Assembly: GCA_964480905.1 (NCBI GenBank)
Contig: CAYZRO010000001.1
Span: 1-26,985 of the forward strand
Direction: 5' to 3'
Length of the DNA: 26,985 nucleotides
Source of the DNA: an uncultured Candidatus Saccharibacteria bacterium
GTDB taxonomy: Bacteria > Patescibacteriota > Minisyncoccia > Portnoybacterales > JAGGTM01
Shown here: positions 11,656 through 23,154 of the stretch, in pieces
How the letters are laid out: each line of letters opens with the position of its first letter
Position numbering within the stretch: position 1 is the first letter of the stretch
Translations under genes and position numbers: made by a program
The notes under the pieces: model-generated
Databases searched by the model: none
What the model was told of the DNA's origin: nothing
What the model saw: the letters and a program-made list of their open reading frames with translations, nothing else

Positions 11656-13230
11656 ATGGAGTGGGTGAATAAAGCTAATGTTTTCTTTGTTTTGAATCTT
11701 TCATTCATATTTGGTATTTATTTAGGTTCTTTATTTCATTCTCCAGTTATTTGGTTAATTTCTTTAATTTTAGCTTCAGCAAGTATAGTTGTTTTTACAA
11801 TTTTTTTCCGGCAAAGTTTTATAGGTAAATTAATATTGCTTTTTGGCGTAGCTTTTTTAGTTGTCGTTTTTGGTATTTTTCGTTCAGACATAGCTTTTAA
11901 GCATATTGATGAAGATAAGTCAAATAATTTTTTTCTTTATAATGATCAAGGAGAAATTGTTTTTCGGGGGATTGTTAGCAGTGATCCTTTAATTTATTTA
12001 GATCGTGTAAAATATGTTATTTCGGTTTTGCCCGCCAAAGGAGATAATTCAGCGGATCAGCTCCTTCAGGGTAAAATTTTTTTAATTCATAAGAAATATC
12101 CTATTTATCATTATGGAGATTTATTAGAGATAAAAGGTAGATTAAAATCACCCCCGGTTTATCCTGATTTTAATTATCAAGATTATTTGGTTACTAAAAA
12201 AATATATTCATTGGTTTATTATCCAAAAATAAAATTTATTTCCTCTGATGCTTTTTGCCATTTTTCAAGCCAAAAAGGACTAGAGAGAATTTTTATTTGC
12301 TGGCAATACAATTTTTATCAGAACCTTTTTAATTTAAAAAATCAACTTAGGCATTCTTTATTGCGTATTATTTCTCCGCCCGAAGAAGCAATTTTAGGAG
12401 CAATGATTTTAGGCGATAAGCAGAGTTTGTCTTTAGATTTGAAAGACAAACTTAATCGAATCGGCCTACGACATATTGTTGCTATTTCAGGAATGCATAT
12501 TATCATTATCATTACTGGTTTATCTGAAATTTTAATTCTATTCGGACTTTGGCGGAACCAAGCTTTTTATTTCGCTTTGATTGGCATAATTATTTTTATT
12601 TTAATGATTGGCGCTCCCCCCTCAGCTGTACGTGCCGGTTTAATGGGCATTTTATGTTTATTAGCCCAGAAGTTAGGACGACTCAACCAAGCTTGGCGTT
12701 CGGTTATTTTTGTCGCTGTAGTAATATTAATTTTTAACCCCTTATTATTAAAATATGATGTAGGTTTTCAACTTTCTTTTGCCGCTGTTTTGGGTATTAT
12801 ATATTTTAAGCCTTGGTTTGATAAAATTTTGCTTTCTCGTTTTCATTCTAAAATTTTAACATTATTGTCTATGAGTTTAGCTGCTCAAATAACAACTTTG
12901 CCGATTTTAATTTATAATTTCAGCAAGATATCTTTGGTTGCCCCTTTAACTAATATTTTAGTAGTCGGTTTTCTGCCTATTGTGATGGGCTTTGGTTTTT
13001 TAGGAGCTTTTTTTGGTATTTTTTGGACCTTGTTAGGACAAATTTTTGTTTGGCCTTCTTCGCTTTTATTAAATTATATTATGAAAATTGTTGACTTTTT
13101 TTCTTCTTTATCTTTAGCTAGCCTAGAGATAAAAAATATTCATTGGTTATGGTTAGCTGTTTATTATCTGTTCTTGTTTATTCTTTATTTAAAAATTAGG
13201 GAAAAGCCATTGGTTAAACAAATTAAATAA
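11656..13230 (+). CDS. comEC: ComEC/Rec2 DNA uptake channel (DUF4131/OB + competence membrane domains, no nuclease domain)
   Basis: Multi-pass membrane protein; HIVAISGMHI, PSAVRA, GFQLSF and LTNILV motifs. Confidence 0.93.
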   Translation: MEWVNKANVFFVLNLSFIFGIYLGSLFHSPVIWLISLILASASIVVFTIFFRQSFIGKLILLFGVAFLVVVFGIFRSDIAFKHIDEDKSNNFFLYNDQGEIVFRGIVSSDPLIYLDRVKYVISVLPAKGDNSADQLLQGKIFLIHKKYPIYHYGDLLEIKGRLKSPPVYPDFNYQDYLVTKKIYSLVYYPKIKFISSDAFCHFSSQKGLERIFICWQYNFYQNLFNLKNQLRHSLLRIISPPEEAILGAMILGDKQSLSLDLKDKLNRIGLRHIVAISGMHIIIIITGLSEILILFGLWRNQAFYFALIGIIIFILMIGAPPSAVRAGLMGILCLLAQKLGRLNQAWRSVIFVAVVILIFNPLLLKYDVGFQLSFAAVLGIIYFKPWFDKILLSRFHSKILTLLSMSLAAQITTLPILIYNFSKISLVAPLTNILVVGFLPIVMGFGFLGAFFGIFWTLLGQIFVWPSSLLLNYIMKIVDFFSSLSLASLEIKNIHWLWLAVYYLFLFILYLKIREKPLVKQIK

Positions 13231-13267
13231 AAAAGGTAGATCTAATTTGTTTCCGGTCTACCTTTTT
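13230..13267. terminator. Bidirectional terminator between convergent comEC and the antisense gene
   Basis: aaaaaggtaga (13230-13240) pairs with tctaccttttt (13257-13267), giving a U tract on both strands; overlaps the TAG of the minus-strand ORF. Confidence 0.6.
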
Positions 13268-13638
13268 AATATGTTTATTATTTTTTCTTTAACCTCTTTC
13301 ACTCCTTCTCCAGGTTTCCTTACAATGAAATTTATATCACTGGTATGTTTTCTATATCCTTCTTTTTTTCCTTTGGTTGATGATTTTGCATTCAGGAAGA
13401 GTTTTTGTCCTTCTTTATTAATAACGACAAAATCTATTCCTTTTTTCCAATCTAAATATTTATTTCCTTTTGAAAAGTTTATTATTTCCCCCTCACTTTT
13501 CAGCTCTTTTAGAGCTTTTGCTACCATTTTTTCACTTATTATTCCTCTTTCAAGAGATGTTTTTTTTACTTTCTTTAGTATTTTTGTTTTAGGATTATAT
13601 TGAATATATTTTATACTTTTCTTCGCTTTTTTATACAT
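13258..13638 (-). CDS. Small basic hypothetical protein with a PD-(D/E)xK nuclease-like motif pattern
   Basis: Strong SD (TAAGGAGGGT) 5-6 nt before the ATG. Motifs RG..SE..V, D..KGIDFVV and LFLNAKSS. The fold assignment is by eye only. Confidence 0.65.
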   Translation of the reverse strand: MYKKAKKSIKYIQYNPKTKILKKVKKTSLERGIISEKMVAKALKELKSEGEIINFSKGNKYLDWKKGIDFVVINKEGQKLFLNAKSSTKGKKEGYRKHTSDINFIVRKPGEGVKEVKEKIINILKR

Positions 13639-13723
13639 TTTTAACCCTCCTTATTTTTTAAGTAACTAATTATATTAAATAATAAAATTTAAAACTTGTA
13701 AATAGCATATTCATATTTTACAA

Positions 13724-14590
13724 ATGAATCTAAAGAATTTTTTAATTCAGAAATACAAGATTATCCTTTTGATGTTAACAGTTGTTTGTTTTTCGATTTG
13801 GCACAATGTCTTTACTCAAAATAATTCTTTGTTGGTAGTTCATTTTTACGACGTAGGCCAAGGCGATGCTATTTTTATTGAAACTCCGACTCATCATCAA
13901 ATTTTAATTGATGGTGGCCCAGACAGTACTATTTTAGAAAAATTAGGTAGAGATTTATCTTTTTTTGACCGTTCACTTGATTTAGTCATTTTGACTCATC
14001 CAGACAGTGATCATTTGAATGGCTTAATAGATGTTTTGCAATCTTATCATATAGATAAAATTATTTATACAGGTATTAAAGATGATTTAGCCGCTTACAA
14101 ATTTTGGCAGGAGCTTATTAAAAAGAAACATATTCCAGTAATTTTTGCCCAGGCGAATGAGAGAATTAAAATAAGTCAAAATTTGTGGATAGATATTCTT
14201 TATCCATTTGAAAATCTGGTTGGTCAATCTTTTAAAAAAACTAACAATACGTCAGTAGTTTGTCGTTTGGTCTTTGGTAAAGATTCTTTTTTATTGACAG
14301 GCGATATAGATATATCAGTTGAAAAACAATTGATAAAATTCTATAATTTAAAATCCAATGTTTTAAAAGTTAGTCATCATGGTAGTAAGTATTCCACAAG
14401 TCAGACGTTTCTGAAAGCAGTTTTGCCTCAAATGGCTGTTATTCCAGTAGGCAGGAAAAATCGTTATGGACATCCTCACCGAGAGACGCTTAAACGTTTA
14501 GAGGGCATTCATTTATTTCGAACAGATATTAATGGCGATATTGAAATTTTAACTGATGGCTATCATTTAGCAGTGAAAACTTTATATTAA
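13724..14590 (+). CDS. ComEC-type metallo-beta-lactamase-fold hydrolase (stand-alone nuclease domain)
   Basis: N-terminal TM anchor; DVGQGDA, LIDGG, THPDSDHLNG, LTGDI, KVSHHGSK, NRYGHPH and RTDINGDI motifs. Confidence 0.92.
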   Translation: MNLKNFLIQKYKIILLMLTVVCFSIWHNVFTQNNSLLVVHFYDVGQGDAIFIETPTHHQILIDGGPDSTILEKLGRDLSFFDRSLDLVILTHPDSDHLNGLIDVLQSYHIDKIIYTGIKDDLAAYKFWQELIKKKHIPVIFAQANERIKISQNLWIDILYPFENLVGQSFKKTNNTSVVCRLVFGKDSFLLTGDIDISVEKQLIKFYNLKSNVLKVSHHGSKYSTSQTFLKAVLPQMAVIPVGRKNRYGHPHRETLKRLEGIHLFRTDINGDIEILTDGYHLAVKTLY

Positions 14591-14674: not shown

Positions 14675-15286
14675 ATGAAAAATAATTCTAATTTACAAAG
14701 AAGATTTGAAGAAAGAACTTTAGTGATTATTAAGCCCGATGGAGTTCAGCGTGGTCTTGTCGGTGAAATTATTTCCCGTTTTGAAAAAGCCGGCTTAAAG
14801 ATGGTCGCTTTGAAAATGGTTTGGCCGACAAAAGAGCATTATAATATGCATTATCCTGACAAACAGGAATATTTAGAAAATTTAGGAGCTAAAACATTAG
14901 AGACTTATCAGCGTTATAAAATTGATGCTAAGAAAGAATTAGGGACTGACAATAAGTTGAAAATAGGCAAAATGGTGAAAAAGTGGTTAATTGCTTCTAT
15001 GAGTTCCGGGCCAGTTATTGCTATGGTTATTCAAGGTCCTCATGCTGTAGAGAGCGTGCGGATGATTACTGGTCCAACCTTACCTGCTTTTGCTCCTCCT
15101 GGCACGATTCGGGGAGATTTTTCAGTTGATTCTCCCGCTTTAGCTAATACAGGCAAAAGAGCGGTGAAAAATATTATTCACGCTTCTAGTAGTTTTGATG
15201 ATGCAGAGGAAGAAATAAAACTTTGGTTTGCCCCGGAAGAAATTCATGATTATCGCCGTGCCGAAGAAGAAATAATGTTTGAATAG
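14675..15286 (+). CDS. ndk: Nucleoside-diphosphate kinase (long form)
   Basis: ERTLVIIKPDGVQRGLVGEIISRFE, PGTIRGDF, NIIHASSS (catalytic His), EIKLWF. Confidence 0.95.
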   Translation: MKNNSNLQRRFEERTLVIIKPDGVQRGLVGEIISRFEKAGLKMVALKMVWPTKEHYNMHYPDKQEYLENLGAKTLETYQRYKIDAKKELGTDNKLKIGKMVKKWLIASMSSGPVIAMVIQGPHAVESVRMITGPTLPAFAPPGTIRGDFSVDSPALANTGKRAVKNIIHASSSFDDAEEEIKLWFAPEEIHDYRRAEEEIMFE

Positions 15287-18968: not shown

Positions 18969-19020
18969 TTTAAGAGCTTAACAAATTCATATATCTATAT
19001 AGGAAAATAAAACCTTAGGA

Positions 19021-19056
19021 TAAAAAATAAGCCCCTTGGGTCTTATAGGGGCTTAT
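19021..19056 (-). terminator. Intrinsic terminator with a U tract only on the minus strand
   Basis: ataagcccct (19027-19036) / aggggcttat (19047-19056). The minus strand continues ttttttat; the plus strand continues aaaag. Confidence 0.6.
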
Positions 19057-19149
19057 AAAAGAAAAAGCAAAAAGGAGGGTAAGAGGGAATAATAACACAG
19101 AAAAGGTGCTAATTTAAGCTTATAATTTATTTAGAACATGTCAAGTTTT

Positions 19150-19158
19150 TTATCCACA
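19150..19158 (+). promoter_or_regulatory. Consensus DnaA box
   Basis: Exact TTATCCACA in the topA-ABC ATPase intergenic region. Confidence 0.45.
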
Positions 19159-19162
19159 ATTT

Positions 19163-19188
19163 TTTAAGAAATTTAAAAATTTCTTAAA
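19163..19188. repeat. Perfect 12-bp inverted repeat
   Basis: tttaagaaattt-aa-aaatttcttaaa. Confidence 0.7.
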
Positions 19189-19304
19189 GACAGTATTTTA
19201 TATTTTATTCAAGATGATTTGATATTCTTTTAAGAAGCAGAAGATTTGAGTAGATGTTCCTTGTTTTCTTAATTAATTTTTTATTTTATAATAATTTTTT
19301 AAAT

Positions 19305-19333
19305 TTGTCGTTCCCCAAACAATATGTTAATAT
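19305..19333 (+). promoter_or_regulatory. Putative promoter of the ABC ATPase/GTPase/ferredoxin cluster
   Basis: TTGTCG (19305-19310), 17 nt, TAATAT (19328-19333), with TGn; favours the ATG at 19363 as the start. Confidence 0.45.
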
Positions 19334-19362
19334 AAATTCATTTGTATATTAAAATATGCTTT

Positions 19363-20169
19363 ATGAAAAACCAGATTGCTAAATTAACAATTTTGCCAGG
19401 GATAAATAAATTTGGAAAAAAGGAAAAATTTGAAAAAATTGAGATAAAAAAAGGCGAGATAGTGGCAATAGTTGGTCCTACAGGTTCTGGAAAGAGTCAG
19501 TTGCTTTACGATATTGAAAAGTTAGCCCAAGGCGATACCCAGAGTCAAAGGAGGATTTTAATCAATAATAAAATTCCTGACCAAGAGTGGCGTTTTAATC
19601 CTAAAAGGAAATTTATTGCTTCTTTGGCCCAGACAATGAATTTTTTAACTGATGTTTCAGTGAGAAAATTTTTAGAATTACATATAAAAGCCAGAGGCAA
19701 GAAGCCAAAACCTGGATTAATTGACGAAGTTATTAGAGAAGCTAATGAAATAACAGGTGAGCCTATTGCGCCTGAAATGAATTTATTGAATTTATCTGGC
19801 GGGCAGAGTCGGGCTTTGATGATTGCTGATATCGCCAATATTAGTATTTCTCCTGTAATTTTAATCGATGAAATAGAAAATGCCGGTATAAAAAAAGAGA
19901 GGGCGATTCAAGTCTTAATTGAGGAAGGAAAAATTGTTCTTATTGTTACTCATGATCCTTCTTTGGCTTTAGGCGCTGATAAAAGAATAGTTATCAAAAA
20001 TGGTGGTATTATAAAAATTATTAAAACAACTTTAAAAGAAAAAGGCATAGCCCATTATTTGAATTGGGTAGAGGGATATAATTTAAAAATCAGAGAGCAA
20101 ATTAGACGAGGCGAGAGTATAGAAGAGATAGAAATGTTTTGTAAACCTACACATCAAAATAATATTTAA
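19363..20169 (+). CDS. ABC-type ATPase without an adjacent permease
   Basis: Walker A GPTGSGKS, signature LSGGQ, Walker B ILIDE, H-loop VTHD. Start placed at ATG 19363, in frame with the TTG at 19342 used by the track. Confidence 0.9.
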   Translation: MKNQIAKLTILPGINKFGKKEKFEKIEIKKGEIVAIVGPTGSGKSQLLYDIEKLAQGDTQSQRRILINNKIPDQEWRFNPKRKFIASLAQTMNFLTDVSVRKFLELHIKARGKKPKPGLIDEVIREANEITGEPIAPEMNLLNLSGGQSRALMIADIANISISPVILIDEIENAGIKKERAIQVLIEEGKIVLIVTHDPSLALGADKRIVIKNGGIIKIIKTTLKEKGIAHYLNWVEGYNLKIREQIRRGESIEEIEMFCKPTHQNNI

Positions 20170-20187
20170 TTAGGTTAAGTTATCAAT

Positions 20188-20994
20188 ATGAAATTTGTTA
20201 TTTTTGCCGGAACTCCCGGTTCTGGCAAAACAAGCATTATTAAATTTGTTATTCAAGAGTTAAGCAAAGAATTAAAATTATTCTTTGCTAAATTTGATTG
20301 TTTAAATACTGAGGATAATAAATTAATCTCAGAAAGATATCAAATTGATGCAGTAAAAAAATTGGCCGGCGAGCTTTGCCCAGATCATTATACAGCTTTA
20401 GAAGTGCCTAAAATTCTAAAGGAAAACCAAGATAAAGATATTATTATTTTAGAAACTGCTGGCTTGTGCCTTCGTTGTTCGCCCTATATTAATGAAGGAT
20501 TAGGCATTAATGTTTTGGATATTACCTCAGGTGATCCTAAGCGTTATGGTCCGATTTTGACTCAAGCAGATATCGTTGCGATTAGCAAAGGAGATTTAAT
20601 TTCTCAAGCGGAGAGAGAAATTTTTAGAGCTGGTGTTTTAAGAGTAAATCCTAAGGCTAAAATAGTGGAAGTTAATGGTTTAACTGGCGAAGGAGCAATT
20701 GATATAATAGAGTTTATTAAATTGTCTCCTGACGTCAACGGACAAAAACTTACCTTAAAGCATTCTATGCCTTCGGCTGTTTGCGGTTATTGTTATGGCA
20801 ATAAAATTATAGACGAGAAAGCTGTTCATGATAGATATTTGGCTGGGAGAGAGTTAAAAGCTCTAGTGCCTAATTTGAATTGTGGTCGATGCGGTTTTAA
20901 GTCTTGTAATGAATTTATTAGGGCGGTTTTGGATAGGGAGGCAGAAAAGGGACAATGTCCTTTTATTAAAAAGAAAAAGATAAATAACAAATAG
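20188..20994 (+). CDS. G3E (CobW/HypB/UreG-like) P-loop GTPase fused to a C-terminal putative Fe-S domain
   Basis: GTPGSGKT, CPDH, LETAGLCLRCSP, SKGD (NKxD-like); C-terminal CGYC and PNLNCGRCGFKSC...CP (CxxCxxxxC..C). Confidence 0.85.
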   Translation: MKFVIFAGTPGSGKTSIIKFVIQELSKELKLFFAKFDCLNTEDNKLISERYQIDAVKKLAGELCPDHYTALEVPKILKENQDKDIIILETAGLCLRCSPYINEGLGINVLDITSGDPKRYGPILTQADIVAISKGDLISQAEREIFRAGVLRVNPKAKIVEVNGLTGEGAIDIIEFIKLSPDVNGQKLTLKHSMPSAVCGYCYGNKIIDEKAVHDRYLAGRELKALVPNLNCGRCGFKSCNEFIRAVLDREAEKGQCPFIKKKKINNK

Positions 20995-21057
20995 TAATTA
21001 ACTGATTATCGAAGTGAGATAAAAAGATGTCAGTTGATAACTATTTTTTAATATATT

Positions 21058-21336
21058 ATGCCATGGGTTAATCAAGAAAAATGTATAGGTTGTGGGCTTT
21101 GTTCTAATGCATGTCCTGTAGGCGCCATTTCTTTTAGAGATGGCAAAGCTTTTATTGACCAAAGTAAGTGTATCAAGTGCGGTAAATGTATGGAGGTTTG
21201 TCCCCAGAAAGCGATTTTGCCTAATTCTGAAAATCCAGACTTAAGAGGCGGTTTAATTGCTAGAGGATCAGGGCAGGGTTTGGTTAGTCGTTTAAGAAAT
21301 CACTATCGTCATCGTCGAGGCCGTCGGCATTTTTAA
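21058..21336 (+). CDS. 2x[4Fe-4S] ferredoxin with a basic Arg/His-rich tail
   Basis: [12 protein letters not shown] and [12 protein letters not shown]. Confidence 0.93.
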
Positions 21337-21427
21337 GAAGTTAGGCTATTAAAATATTTATTATTTCATAAATAAAAATAAAAAAACTATTTTTATTATT
21401 TTAAGATAATTGAGAAAAATAATAATT

Positions 21428-21628
21428 ATGGGAAAATTGAAAGTAAATAAATCAAAGTGTGCCGGCTGTGGTGCTTGTCTTCAGGTTTGTCCTTATGGTG
21501 CTATTAAAATAGGTGATGATAACAAAGCCGTTATTGATAAAGAGAAATGCCGACACTGTGGCAAATGCAGGGAGATTTGTCCTTTTGGCGCTATTGAGGA
21601 GGAGGAAGAAGAAGGATCAAAAAAATAG
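21428..21628 (+). CDS. 2x[4Fe-4S] ferredoxin with an acidic tail
   Basis: CAGCGACLQVCP and CRHCGKCREICP; ATG 21428 preferred over TTG 21410. Confidence 0.93.
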   Translation: MGKLKVNKSKCAGCGACLQVCPYGAIKIGDDNKAVIDKEKCRHCGKCREICPFGAIEEEEEEGSKK

Positions 21629-22783: not shown

Positions 22784-22818
22784 GAAGGGTTTTATCTTGA
22801 TAGAAACAAAAACAGGGA

Positions 22819-22889
22819 TCGGAGTGCCGGGAGTTGAACCCGGGCTACACCCACCCCAAGGGTGCGTACTACCGTTATACTACACTCCG
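22819..22889 (-). tRNA. tRNA-Pro(GGG), CCA not encoded
   Basis: Minus strand CGGAGTG-TA-GTAT..GTAC-G-CACCC-TTGGGGT-GGGTG-TAGC-CCGGG-TTCAACT-CCCGG-CACTCCG-A; all four arms pair. Confidence 0.95.
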
Positions 22890-22908
22890 AAGCTTATAAA
22901 AAGCTATA

Positions 22909-23154
22909 TTATTTTTGTTCAGTTTTTATTTTAAGAGTTTTATATAAACTTTTTAGACAGCGACTACAGATTTTGATTCTTTTTCCTTTGTATTGATTGA
23001 ATTTACGAGGCAAATTTAATTCAGGTGAGATGAAAACCCATCTTAGATTTGGATATTTTCTTTTTTTAGCTGTTGGGTTATACTTGCCACGAAGTTTTTT
23101 TCGTACAGTAGCTACTATTGATTTTTTGCCGCAAATGTCGCACACTTTAGACAT
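22909..23154 (-). CDS. rpmB: 50S ribosomal protein bL28 (zinc-binding type)
   Basis: MSKVCDICGK, R..PNL and KICSRCLK. Confidence 0.9.
   Translation of the reverse strand: MSKVCDICGKKSIVATVRKKLRGKYNPTAKKRKYPNLRWVFISPELNLPRKFNQYKGKRIKICSRCLKSLYKTLKIKTEQK

Follow-up and report, generated by a model that had tools for sequence, protein, structure and literature searches.

How Fe-S and thiol-redox proteins are built and powered in the minimal genomes of CPR bacteria and DPANN archaea is poorly understood. The 26,985-nucleotide stretch of DNA analysed here (hereafter the window) carries four neighbouring genes that code for an ABC-type ATPase, a GTPase fused to a putative Fe-S domain and two ferredoxins, and it raises the question of what these proteins do together. 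A first-pass annotation made from the sequence alone had suggested ATP/GTP-driven metal or Fe-S delivery or electron transfer. We consider this to be the right set of hypotheses, which the data presented here do not separate from one another. In this study, we characterized the four gene products computationally and compared the module with related loci in other genomes. We revealed that the four genes are the small-genome version, found in CPR, TM6 and DPANN organisms, of a widespread pairing of an ABC ATPase with a HypB/UreG-like GTPase.

Results

Organization of the four-gene module

All four open reading frames were found on the plus strand where the first-pass annotation had placed them, with intergenic gaps of 18, 63 and 91 nt. 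The ABC ATPase gene (19363-20169) encodes 268 amino acids from an ATG; the mechanically called frame opens at a TTG at 19342, and the ATG at 19363 was chosen because homologues start there. It is followed by the gene for the G3E GTPase fused to PF04060 (20188-20994), by that of ferredoxin 1 (21058-21336, 92 amino acids) and by that of ferredoxin 2 (21428-21628, 66 amino acids from an ATG, the mechanical frame opening at a TTG at 21410). The AT-rich stretch that separates topA from the module (18969-19362, plus strand) is likely to be the promoter region. It includes a GC-rich hairpin 3' of topA at about 19031-19057 and, upstream of the ATPase gene, a promoter-like sequence at 19327-19355, which is a consensus match only. 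The GC content of the module (0.30-0.33) equals that of the window and thus gives no sign of recent import at this locus, and a search for phage carriage as a vehicle of horizontal transfer found no relatives of the module on IMG/VR contigs.

Pairing of the ATPase and the GTPase in three architectures

Eighty-nine related loci were fetched and compared, comprising 25 of type A, 43 of type B and 21 of type C. In 87 of them, the ABC and GTPase genes are neighbours in the same orientation, and the other two sit at contig ends; the GTPase and the ABC ATPase are also naturally fused in single proteins (P0246, 613 amino acids; P0250, 509 amino acids). The pairing of the ATPase with the GTPase is obligate. 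Of the 25 type A loci, 24 have a ferredoxin gene in the flank, and with these two frequencies the four-gene arrangement is far beyond chance. The proposal that the four genes act as one functional unit is therefore supported by the obligate pair and by both ferredoxins, each of which belongs to a subtype that recurs beside it.

Type A, to which the window belongs, occurs in CPR, TM6 and DPANN organisms and has the GTPase fused to the FeS domain. Its usual gene order is Trx-ABC-GTPase-Fdx-FTR, with Trx in 16 of the 25 loci and an FTR-like protein, carrying a CPC-x16-CPC-x8-CHC motif, in 13. The main neighbours are disulfide-redox proteins: besides Trx and the FTR-like protein, these are TrxR-like, CoADR-like and HdrB-like proteins. 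Others are NifX-like proteins (PF02579), MinD/ParA-ferredoxin proteins, CDF cation efflux proteins and CsoR-type metal or persulfide repressors, and single loci contain a DsrE-like gene (L009) or a SLAC1/TehA-type anion channel (L019). In the 13 loci with an FTR-like gene, the pair sits inside an operon of the form Trx-...-Fdx-FTR-like, reminiscent of FTR systems (PF02943), whereas a tblastn search of the window found neither an FTR-like nor a Trx gene, and no remnants of Trx, FTR or CsoR. Neither ABC ATPases nor G3E GTPases are known from FTR systems. The recurrent Trx and FTR-like ferredoxin:disulfide reductase partners of the pair in other genomes had escaped the first-pass annotation.

Type B, found in methanogens and some Bacteroidales and Spirochaetes, has a separate COG2000 Fe-S protein. 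Type C, found in Clostridia and Desulfuromonadales, has a cytoplasmic DUF1858 solute-binding-like protein beside the pair, in which the DUF1858 domain occupies the place of a signal peptide, together with Hcp plus CRP in 6 of the 21 loci. Matches of this binding protein in the PDB (PotD, PhnS and Fe3+ binders) were weak and uninformative as to its ligand. A full-text literature search for DUF134/DUF5320 clusters, FTR in Patescibacteria and DUF1858-linked pairs found nothing.

The pair is among the most conserved proteins of its CPR, TM6 and DPANN carriers. The GTPase search returned 2027 clusters at 90% identity; the best 120 of these homologues all have the same two fused domains and are 74-82% identical to the query (one near-identical at 99%), compared with 67-76% for FtsZ. 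Close homologues of the ATPase are 67-78% identical. Identity of the pair with that of TM6 bacteria and DPANN archaea is 65-80%, and type A proteins are 58-89% identical pairwise across phyla and both domains (median 66%) and 70-74% identical between domains. Identity above that of FtsZ argues for a tightly constrained core function. The module is hence typical of CPR, TM6 and DPANN, contrary to the earlier remark that such hardware is unexpected in a reduced CPR-like genome.

The first-pass annotation had also named NrdG as an obvious client. In the window, nrdDG lies 8.5 kb upstream of the module with six unrelated genes in between, and the flanks of the 89 loci contain no relatives of NrdD or NrdG. 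We rejected NrdG as a genomically supported client, although it may be one biochemically.

A soluble ABC ATPase

The ATPase matches PF00005 at 51 bits (cut-off 25). Walker A (G38-K44), the Q-loop glutamine (Q90), L144SGGQ148, D169E170 (Walker B plus its Glu) and the H-loop histidine (H197) are invariant in 28 homologues, and a C-terminal helix at about residues 224-248 is conserved. An AF2 model (pLDDT 83) has an NBD fold.

As the first-pass annotation had noticed, a membrane partner is missing: the window contains no permease gene, and a survey of 80 related loci revealed no recurrent membrane partner. An open reading frame with four or more TM segments occurs within two genes of the pair in 11 of these loci and in none of the remaining 69, and the 11 encode MraY, SLAC1 and one uncharacterised membrane protein, none of them an ABC permease. 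The cognate permease beside the ATPase by which an ABC transporter is recognized was thus found neither in the window nor in the 80 loci. The ATPase is a soluble ABC-type protein without a transmembrane partner at the locus.

If the ATPase simply belonged to an ABC transporter with its permease gene at another locus, and the GTPase and ferredoxin genes were neighbours without a link to it, this would account for the complete set of PF00005 motifs, for the transporter NBDs that are the best PDB and NCBIfam sequence matches, and for the solute-binding-protein fold beside the type C pair. However, every NCBIfam transporter model scored 4- to 20-fold under its cut-off, membrane proteins near the pair are rare and of other kinds, the type C binding protein has DUF1858 at the signal-peptide position, and the ATPase is strictly adjacent, and in some proteins fused, to the GTPase. 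We regard this explanation as very improbable.

SufC and SmsC are similar to the ATPase in being ABC ATPases that function in an Fe-S-related context with no membrane domain, and SmsC (MJ0035), a part of the M. jannaschii SMS complex, sets a precedent for a soluble ABC clamp in Fe-S assembly. The partner differs, being a G3E GTPase here instead of SufB, SufD or SmsB. The ATPase also has no specific sequence affinity to SmsC, which scored 38.8 bits, under MacB/LolD-type NBDs at 45 bits; in a Foldseek search with the model, SmsC was the nominal top match but statistically tied with dozens of transporter NBDs.

A G3E GTPase with three invariant Cys/His motifs

The GTPase matches PF02492 at 40 bits (cut-off 20.7). 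Its G domain comprises residues 1 to about 190 and is followed by a CxxC linker and the PF04060 domain. UreG (4hi0) and HypB (2wsm and 2hf8) were the top Foldseek matches (probability 1.00; TM-scores of 0.69-0.73), and SIMIBI SRP/FtsY GTPases were also matched. The G3E motifs, namely the P-loop G8-T15 (GTPGSGKT), E89-G92 (ETAG) and S133-D136 (SKGD), are conserved in homologues. The membership of the GTPase in G3E, with a HypB/UreG fold, was thereby confirmed.

Three short motifs provide candidate metal or cluster ligands. C64-P-D-H67 (20377-20388, plus strand), a predicted metal site at the dimer interface, is invariant in 17 distant relatives, and C64 and H67 align with the UreG CPH and with the CH of HypB from M. 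jannaschii, in agreement with the UreG-like site assigned at first pass. C94-L-R-C97 (20467-20478, plus strand) lies directly 3' of the ETAG motif (G3/Walker B), and the residues invariant around it in distant relatives are E89, A91, G92, L93, C94, R96, C97 and P99. C199-G-Y-C202 (20782-20793, plus strand) is a CxxC in a flexible linker, a region (190-209) modelled with a pLDDT below 50, and is invariant across types A, B and C. All six Cys/His residues are invariant in the three architectures, including type C, which has neither the FeS domain nor a ferredoxin; the conserved core is thus independent of the electron-transfer domain.

The GTPase shares with HypB and UreG the fold, the P-loop, ExxG, (N/S/T)KxD and the aligned interface Cys/His, and JGI names its homologues 'Ni2+-binding GTPase involved in maturation of urease and hydrogenase'. 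This name, together with HypB and UreG as the best family and structure matches, would suit a divergent nickel chaperone for hydrogenase or urease. The scores, in contrast, fall far short of both families (HypB, TIGR00073, 61.3 bits against a cut-off of 121.2; UreG, TIGR00101, 28.4 bits against 204.2), and no hyp, ure or [NiFe]-hydrogenase genes were found in the window or in the inspected related loci. The GTPase lacks the N-terminal CxxCGC or His-rich metal site, and its invariant extra CxxC pairs, fused [4Fe-4S] domain and obligate ABC partner have no counterpart in HypB and UreG. A nickel chaperone of this kind is scarcely credible. CobW/COG0523 does not fit either: TIGR02475 gave 15.5 bits against 332, CLRC stands in place of CxCC, and PF04060 in place of CobW_C at the C terminus.

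The fused Fe-S domain and the two ferredoxins

The PF04060 'putative Fe-S cluster' domain (20869-20964, plus strand; residues 228-259 of the GTPase) scored 39.6 bits (cut-off 23). Its four cysteines, C232, C235, C240 and C257 in a C-x2-C-x4-C-x16-C pattern, are invariant within the close family, and the domain is a putative [4Fe-4S] carrier. A PF04060 [4Fe-4S] domain also stands at the N terminus of RnfB and of the large CoFeSP subunit, with the four-Cys pattern kept; in the present case, it is attached to a GTPase and not, as there, to a subunit of a membrane complex or to a corrinoid protein. The ABC motifs, CPDH, CLRC, CGYC and the four-Cys domain listed in the first-pass annotation were thus all present and are conserved in homologues.

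Both ferredoxins are small proteins with the two CxxCxxCxxxCP motifs of bacterial-type 2x[4Fe-4S] ferredoxins. Ferredoxin 1 (Fer4, 74.7 bits, two motifs) has a basic Gly/Arg-rich C-terminal tail and is orthologous to the 'MPWI..KCIGCG' ferredoxin encoded after the GTPase in loci L001, L003, L011, L013, L018 and L019. Ferredoxin 2 (Fer4, 66.9 bits, two motifs) has an acidic C terminus and is the orthologue of the 'K(F/L)KVNKSKCAGCG' ferredoxin beside the pair in L004, L007, L010, L015, L016 and L025.

The methanogen trio and its coenzyme M context

The ATPase/GTPase pairs in anaerobes and methanogens that the first-pass annotation mentioned do exist. Chadwick et al. (2025; PMC12068725, Fig 2 legend) noted that a trio of an ATPase, a 'Ni2+-binding GTPase' and a COG2000 protein co-localises with CoM genes and stated that its role is unknown; our full-text search found no other literature on the trio. 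Compared with the module, the ABC ATPase of the trio is 50-57% identical and the GTPase 40-47%, with the same invariant Cys/His; the PF04060 domain and the gene order are shared, and the two genes are adjacent in all type B loci. The two arrangements differ in that PF04060 forms the N terminus of a separate COG2000-type protein in the trio and is fused to the GTPase in the module. The C-terminal part of the COG2000 protein (roughly 150-170 amino acids), which has no Pfam or PDB relative, occurs in 42 of 43 type B loci and in none of the 25 type A loci. They also differ in context, with CoM genes in methanogens and ferredoxin, Trx and FTR-like genes in type A. The gene immediately upstream of the methanogen pair encodes cysteate synthase in 18 loci and ComA in 8, and the metalloprotein MMP16 (CoM synthase) and ComE are also nearby.

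Discussion

The reading that we tentatively favour, at less than even confidence, is that the module is an ATP/GTP-driven chaperone of Fe or Fe-S centres that draws electrons from its ferredoxins. The ABC ATPase and the GTPase would be parts of a single soluble assembly, probably a heterotetramer of A2G2 composition, which may use ATP and GTP hydrolysis for the loading, assembly or repair of an Fe or Fe-S centre in its clients. The GTPase dimer would hold the metal or cluster through the UreG/HypB-type interface site C64/H67 and the two CxxC pairs, the ABC dimer would act as a SufC-like mechanical clamp instead of a transporter motor, and the two adjacent ferredoxins would pass electrons to the fused [4Fe-4S] domain for reductive cluster chemistry. 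In CPR, TM6 and DPANN organisms, the likeliest clients would be the Fe-S proteins of the ferredoxin/FTR-like/thioredoxin disulfide relay that as a rule flanks the pair.

Several lines of evidence point to this chaperone. The G3E fold and the alignment of C64/H67 with the metal ligands of UreG and HypB place the GTPase near proteins of this function; the characterised G3E proteins met in our searches (HypB, UreG and MeaB/MMAA) are all metallocentre or cofactor chaperones. The obligate pairing and the natural fusions support a joint function, and the precedent of SmsC-like soluble clamps, along with the lack of a recurrent membrane partner, argues for a non-transporter role of the ATPase. The kinship of the fused domain with RnfB and CoFeSP and the near-constant ferredoxin of type A loci suggest electron-transfer partners. 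The context is rich in Fe-S and metal proteins, namely NifX-like, MinD/ParA-ferredoxin, CDF, CsoR and FTR-like proteins in type A, MMP16 in methanogens, and the DUF1858 protein and Hcp in type C. On the other hand, no gene of the SufB, IscU or cysteine desulfurase kind was noticed when the neighbours of the pair were inspected, the fold match to SmsC is tied with dozens of transporter NBDs, and MacB/LolD-type NBDs outscore SmsC by sequence. In addition, ComA and cysteate synthase are not Fe-S enzymes, and the dominant disulfide-redox neighbours of type A fit electron transfer at least equally well.

The chief alternative is that the module serves as an NTP-gated electron pump or as a reductive activase, in which the GTPase dimer with the ABC dimer would work like the nitrogenase Fe protein or RACo. 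Hydrolysis would lower the potential of a bound cluster and drive or gate electrons between thiols (thioredoxin/FTR) and ferredoxin or a client metalloenzyme, providing a low-potential electron source where the usual ferredoxin reductases are lacking; FTR, MMP16 or a radical-SAM activase like NrdG could be the recipient. PF04060 is an electron-transfer domain in RnfB and CoFeSP, the frequencies of ferredoxin, Trx and FTR-like genes in type A loci and the Pyr_redox_2 and HdrB-like CCG disulfide reductases nearby count in favour of such a pump, and MMP16 requires reducing equivalents for CoM synthesis according to the literature. The similarity to NifH and other NTP-driven reductive activators, which is a comparison of working principle only, lies in a dimeric SIMIBI NTPase with interface Cys ligands and adjoining low-potential ferredoxins. 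G3E proteins and NifH both belong to the SIMIBI class, in line with the SRP/FtsY matches. The GTPase here is nevertheless G3E and not MinD/NifH, the second NTPase is of the ABC class, and the bridging cluster is hypothetical. Moreover, no G3E protein is known in such a role, type C retains all invariant Cys/His without the FeS domain or a ferredoxin, the need for two different NTPases is left unexplained, and nrdDG is linked to the pair in none of the 89 loci. We consider the pump possible and, on this balance, doubtful.

Sulfur trafficking, in which the complex would bind or activate sulfide, persulfide or sulfite and pass it to sulfur-using enzymes, seems rather unlikely. The targets would be CoM pathway enzymes in methanogens and thioredoxin/FTR-dependent persulfide reduction in CPR. 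The CsoR family, which includes persulfide sensors, is represented by repressors in type A loci, and the DsrE-like gene and the SLAC1/TehA-type channel occur in one locus each. Cysteate synthase and ComA, mutually unrelated enzymes directly upstream of the methanogen pair, both consume sulfite and thus point to sulfur chemistry instead of Fe-S chemistry; the co-localisation with CoM genes was noted independently in PMC12068725. However, the CoM pathway is absent from the CPR, TM6 and Clostridia carriers, bacterial type B loci have no sulfur genes, rhodanese, TusA and desulfurase are not recurrent, and G3E proteins chaperone metal, not sulfur.

A bolder proposition, which we put forward as speculation and hold to be improbable as a whole, is that ultra-small anaerobes (CPR, TM6 and DPANN) have in the ABC-G3E pair a core machine that has so far gone unrecognised. 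It would be either a third minimal Fe-S assembly or repair system without a SufB/IscU-type scaffold or desulfurase, or an ATP/GTP-driven maker of low-potential reduced ferredoxin from thiol-level electrons, and would have passed by horizontal transfer between bacterial phyla and archaea, with recruitment to CoM biosynthesis in methanogens. The three architectures and the natural fusions offer concrete constructs and tractable hosts for tests. One biochemical answer would bear both on CPR physiology and on the gap in methanogen cofactor biosynthesis, as well as on the range of G3E metallochaperones and of non-transport ABC ATPases.

Four co-oriented genes in the window

The genes for an ABC-type ATPase (19363–20169, PF00005), a GTPase (20188–20994, PF02492 and PF04060) and two ferredoxins (ferredoxin 1, 21058–21336, and ferredoxin 2, 21428–21628, each with two Fer4 motifs) follow one another on the plus strand, separated by gaps of 18, 63 and 91 nt. 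ORF and Pfam domain analyses confirmed this four-gene unit as delimited in the first-pass annotation, and each of the GTPase motifs named there (CPDH, CLRC, CGYC and a four-Cys FeS domain) was found and is conserved. The window is a low-GC (about 0.32), typical CPR/Patescibacteria fragment that also carries genes for L21, Pth, LepB, HisS, FtsA, FtsZ, NrdD, NrdG, ComEC, NDK, DprA, TopA and S12/S7, and the named relatives of its FtsZ are Portnoybacteria and allies.

A 394-bp AT-rich spacer precedes the module and contains, just past topA, a GC-rich hairpin (AAGCCCCT…AGGGGCTT, 19031–19057), which may be the terminator of topA and was not called by a simple terminator scan. Ferredoxin 1 has a basic Gly/Arg-rich tail of 41 residues at its C-terminus (21214–21336). 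Equivalent ferredoxins in five of the related loci that we fetched (L010, L011, L013, L021 and L024) have comparable tails, and the tail resembles the Gly/Arg-rich N-terminal part of DUF5320 proteins in extended versions of the cluster.

Elsewhere in the window, positions 13001–14000 are the sole stretch with negative GC skew (−0.09) and have the lowest GC content (0.27). Two ORFs overlap there on opposite strands: 13247–13603 (plus), with no family match, and 13258–13638 (minus, 126 aa), with a faint wHTH match; the true gene within 13247–13638 is probably on the minus strand. Nucleoside diphosphate kinases are usually about 140–150 aa long. The one encoded at 14675–15286 has 203 aa, matches the Pfam NDK model in two stretches and, by comparison, seems to have an insertion or an extended N-terminus. 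A tRNA-Pro gene (GGG; 22816–22890, minus) lies directly downstream of a GT2 glycosyltransferase gene and is followed by an 81-aa zinc-ribbon ORF (22909–23154, minus) with a faint match to L28 (E 8e-4).

Obligate pairing of the ATPase and GTPase

In a tblastn census, an ABC homologue adjoined the GTPase gene and was co-oriented with it in 87 of the 89 fetched loci, and the two loci without an adjoining ABC gene both end at that side. Natural single-chain GTPase-ABC fusions were found in the representative library (P0246, 613 aa; P0250, 509 aa), with the GTPase first, which matches the gene order of one of the three architectures described below (type C). The ABC ATPase and the GTPase are an obligate pair. 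An ORF with four or more TM segments occurred within two genes of the pair in only 11 of 80 loci, and these ORFs encode MraY, a SLAC1-type channel or an uncharacterised membrane protein, none of them an ABC permease. The absence of a permease, noted earlier for the window, holds for the whole family.

Every catalytic ABC motif of the ATPase is invariant in 28 homologues, and the model of the protein has the NBD fold (pLDDT 83). Against all NCBIfam transporter ATPase models it scored only 35–60 bits, with cut-offs of 220–970, and a role as an ordinary transporter ATPase, largely excluded by these sequence and locus tests, is very improbable. A PDB search gave no preferred relative; the nominal top fold match, SmsC of the SMS Fe-S system, was tied with many transporter NBDs.

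The fold of the GTPase is that of the G3E family, as the first-pass annotation had recognized: the first Foldseek matches of its AF2 model (pLDDT 76.5) were UreG (4hi0) and HypB (2wsm and 2hf8), with TM scores of 0.69–0.73 to the targets. In the family profile, C64 and H67 coincide with CPH in UreG and with CH in Methanocaldococcus jannaschii HypB, the metal site at the dimer interface. The GTPase carries two more invariant CxxC pairs and, at its C-terminus, PF04060, a [4Fe-4S] domain of the RnfB/CoFeSP type. Identity with HypB, UreG or CobW was rejected, with 61 bits against a cut-off of 121 for the HypB equivalog model, 28 against 204 for that of UreG and 15 against 332 for the CobW model. 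A nickel role like that of HypB or UreG, largely excluded by the same kind of tests, is exceedingly improbable.

The N-terminus of the GTPase weakly matches NF041053 ("CobW-related selenoprotein", NCBIfam), and an FTR-like protein of the cluster matches NF041072 ("FtrB family double-selenoprotein") at 80 bits, below the cut-off. From these matches, selenocysteine versions of the GTPase and FTR-like partners may exist in other lineages.

Three gene architectures

The locus sample comprised the best 80 of at least 585 species matches and nine loci looked up directly; it is partly redundant, and the proportions below are valid for this sample only. For several MAG contigs, the taxon label (Chloroflexi, Syntrophaceae, Planctomycetia, Bdellovibrionales, "Saccharibacteria") may stem from binning or from naming conventions and not from the true host. 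Type A was found in 25 loci plus the window, in CPR, TM6 (Dependentiae), DPANN and some MAG contigs labelled otherwise. The module, which had been called unexpected in CPR, proved to be characteristic of them. All 25 loci encode a fusion of GTPase and FeS domain, and the fetched flanks encode ferredoxin (24 loci), thioredoxin (16), an FTR-like protein (13; PF02943, motif CPC-x16-CPC-x8-CHC), MinD/ParA-ferredoxin (11), a CxxC membrane protein (8), DUF5320 (7), a CsoR-type repressor (6), NifX-like proteins (5–6), CDF efflux (5) and DUF134 (5). Pyridine-nucleotide disulfide reductases and an HdrB-like CCG protein are also encoded nearby. The most frequent operon is [CsoR]-Trx-ABC-GTPase-Fdx-FTR. 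The window represents the minimal set, that is, the pair and two ferredoxins, one from each subtype found repeatedly beside it; no Trx, FTR-like or CsoR gene occurs anywhere in its 27 kb. Thioredoxin and the FTR-like disulfide reductase, the real recurrent partners, are invisible from the window alone. The earlier proposal of NrdG as an evident client finds no support: NrdG is linked to the pair in 0 of 89 loci, and in the window nrdDG lies 8.5 kb from the module with six unrelated genes between.

An NTP-gated electron pump or reductive activase of the NifH or RACo kind would suit well the Trx, FTR-like and ferredoxin neighbours and also the character of PF04060. It leaves type C unexplained, and we consider it somewhat doubtful. 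Type C (21 loci; Clostridia, Desulfuromonadales, Fusobacteria, Treponema and others) is without any electron-transfer domain. Its order is a cytoplasmic DUF1858 + SBP_bac_6 protein (20 of 21 loci), the GTPase and an ABC protein with an N-terminal extension, often followed by a small Cys-rich protein, or by CRP and hybrid-cluster protein (6 loci). In the Lachnoanaerobaculum saburreum locus (L073, 6730–12359) and five other type C loci, the operon runs on into a CRP/FNR-type regulator and Hcp; the first gene of the type C operon encodes a solute-binding-protein fold with a DUF1858 domain where a signal peptide would be.

In type B (43 loci; methanogens, some Bacteroidales and Spirochaetes), the ABC gene is followed by a GTPase without the FeS domain and then by a separate FeS-domain protein, which has a conserved C-terminal part in 42 of 43 loci; this part matched no family. 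Upstream of the methanogen pair lies cysteate synthase (18 loci; TIGR03844, 589 bits) or, alternatively, ComA (8 loci; PF02679), and ComE-like genes and MMP16 (TIGR03287) are close by. Cysteate synthase and ComA are mutually unrelated, and both use sulfite. In Methanolobus vulcani (L030, 5974–13501), and likewise in L053 and L058, the pair and a COG2000-like protein are wedged between coenzyme M genes. Trafficking of sulfide, persulfide or sulfite by the pair would account for its striking position directly after two unrelated sulfite-using enzymes, but it fits non-methanogens poorly and is rather unlikely.

Types B and C agree with the earlier statement that similar pairs recur in anaerobes and methanogens. 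The one relevant literature statement that was found, on the ATPase/GTPase/COG2000 trio of methanogens, gives its role as unknown (Chadwick et al. 2025, PMC12068725), and so the family is already noticed but uncharacterised, as first supposed. Full-text literature searches found no description of the fused CPR/TM6/DPANN variant or its thioredoxin/FTR context.

Distribution and conservation

A scan of one genome per species identified at least 585 carriers. The GTPase search yielded 2027 clusters at 90% identity, the best 120 of which were 74–82% identical, plus one at 99%; all have PF02492 and PF04060, and their named sources include CPR3, Wolfebacteria, Portnoybacteria, Shapirobacteria and Babeliales. 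ATPase matches behave likewise (67–78% identical, an archaeal MAG among them). In a 50%-identity library the fused GTPase form collapses to about two clusters, with matches in only 369 of 1.84 billion proteins. Among 22 type A loci, the GTPases are at least 58% identical pairwise, with a median of 66%, and an archaeal MAG shares 70–74% with CPR/TM6 loci. By comparison, the best 120 matches of the window FtsZ, from closely related lineages, are 67–76% identical, and within one locus the GTPase is 82% identical and L21 59%. By these sequence comparisons, the pair is under unusually strong constraint. Its transfer between CPR, TM6 and DPANN is very probable. No relatives were found in viral contigs.

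An extended island (L004, 113–10747; also L005 and L006) starts with a phage-type integrase and continues with DUF5320, two NifX-like proteins, ABC, GTPase, Fdx, Trx, an FTR-like protein, MinD-ferredoxin, a 567-aa membrane protein with no Pfam family, CDF efflux and DUF134. Its GTPase is identical on 21 contigs from several samples, and it looks like a mobile metal/redox island.

Possible function of the pair

The UreG/HypB-type interface Cys/His site and the two CxxC pairs are invariant across types A, B and C, and the catalytic motifs of both NTPases are intact. The electron-transfer-type [4Fe-4S] domain and ferredoxins belong to types A and B. Around the pair, genes for Fe-S proteins, metal homeostasis and thiol-disulfide redox predominate.

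We tentatively favour a soluble complex that loads or repairs Fe or Fe-S client metallocentres, since every characterised G3E protein is, to our knowledge, a metallocentre chaperone and since the conserved core, type C included, is a Cys/His-rich GTPase with an ABC protein; the probability left by this and the other readings falls to something else. In such a chaperone, both NTPases would join in one complex, the G3E dimer would hold Fe or an Fe-S cluster, with electrons supplied by the FeS domain and ferredoxins, and a SufC-like power stroke of the ABC dimer would load or repair the clients. Candidate clients in CPR would be FTR-like proteins and ferredoxins; MMP16 would be the candidate in methanogens, and Hcp the one in Clostridia.
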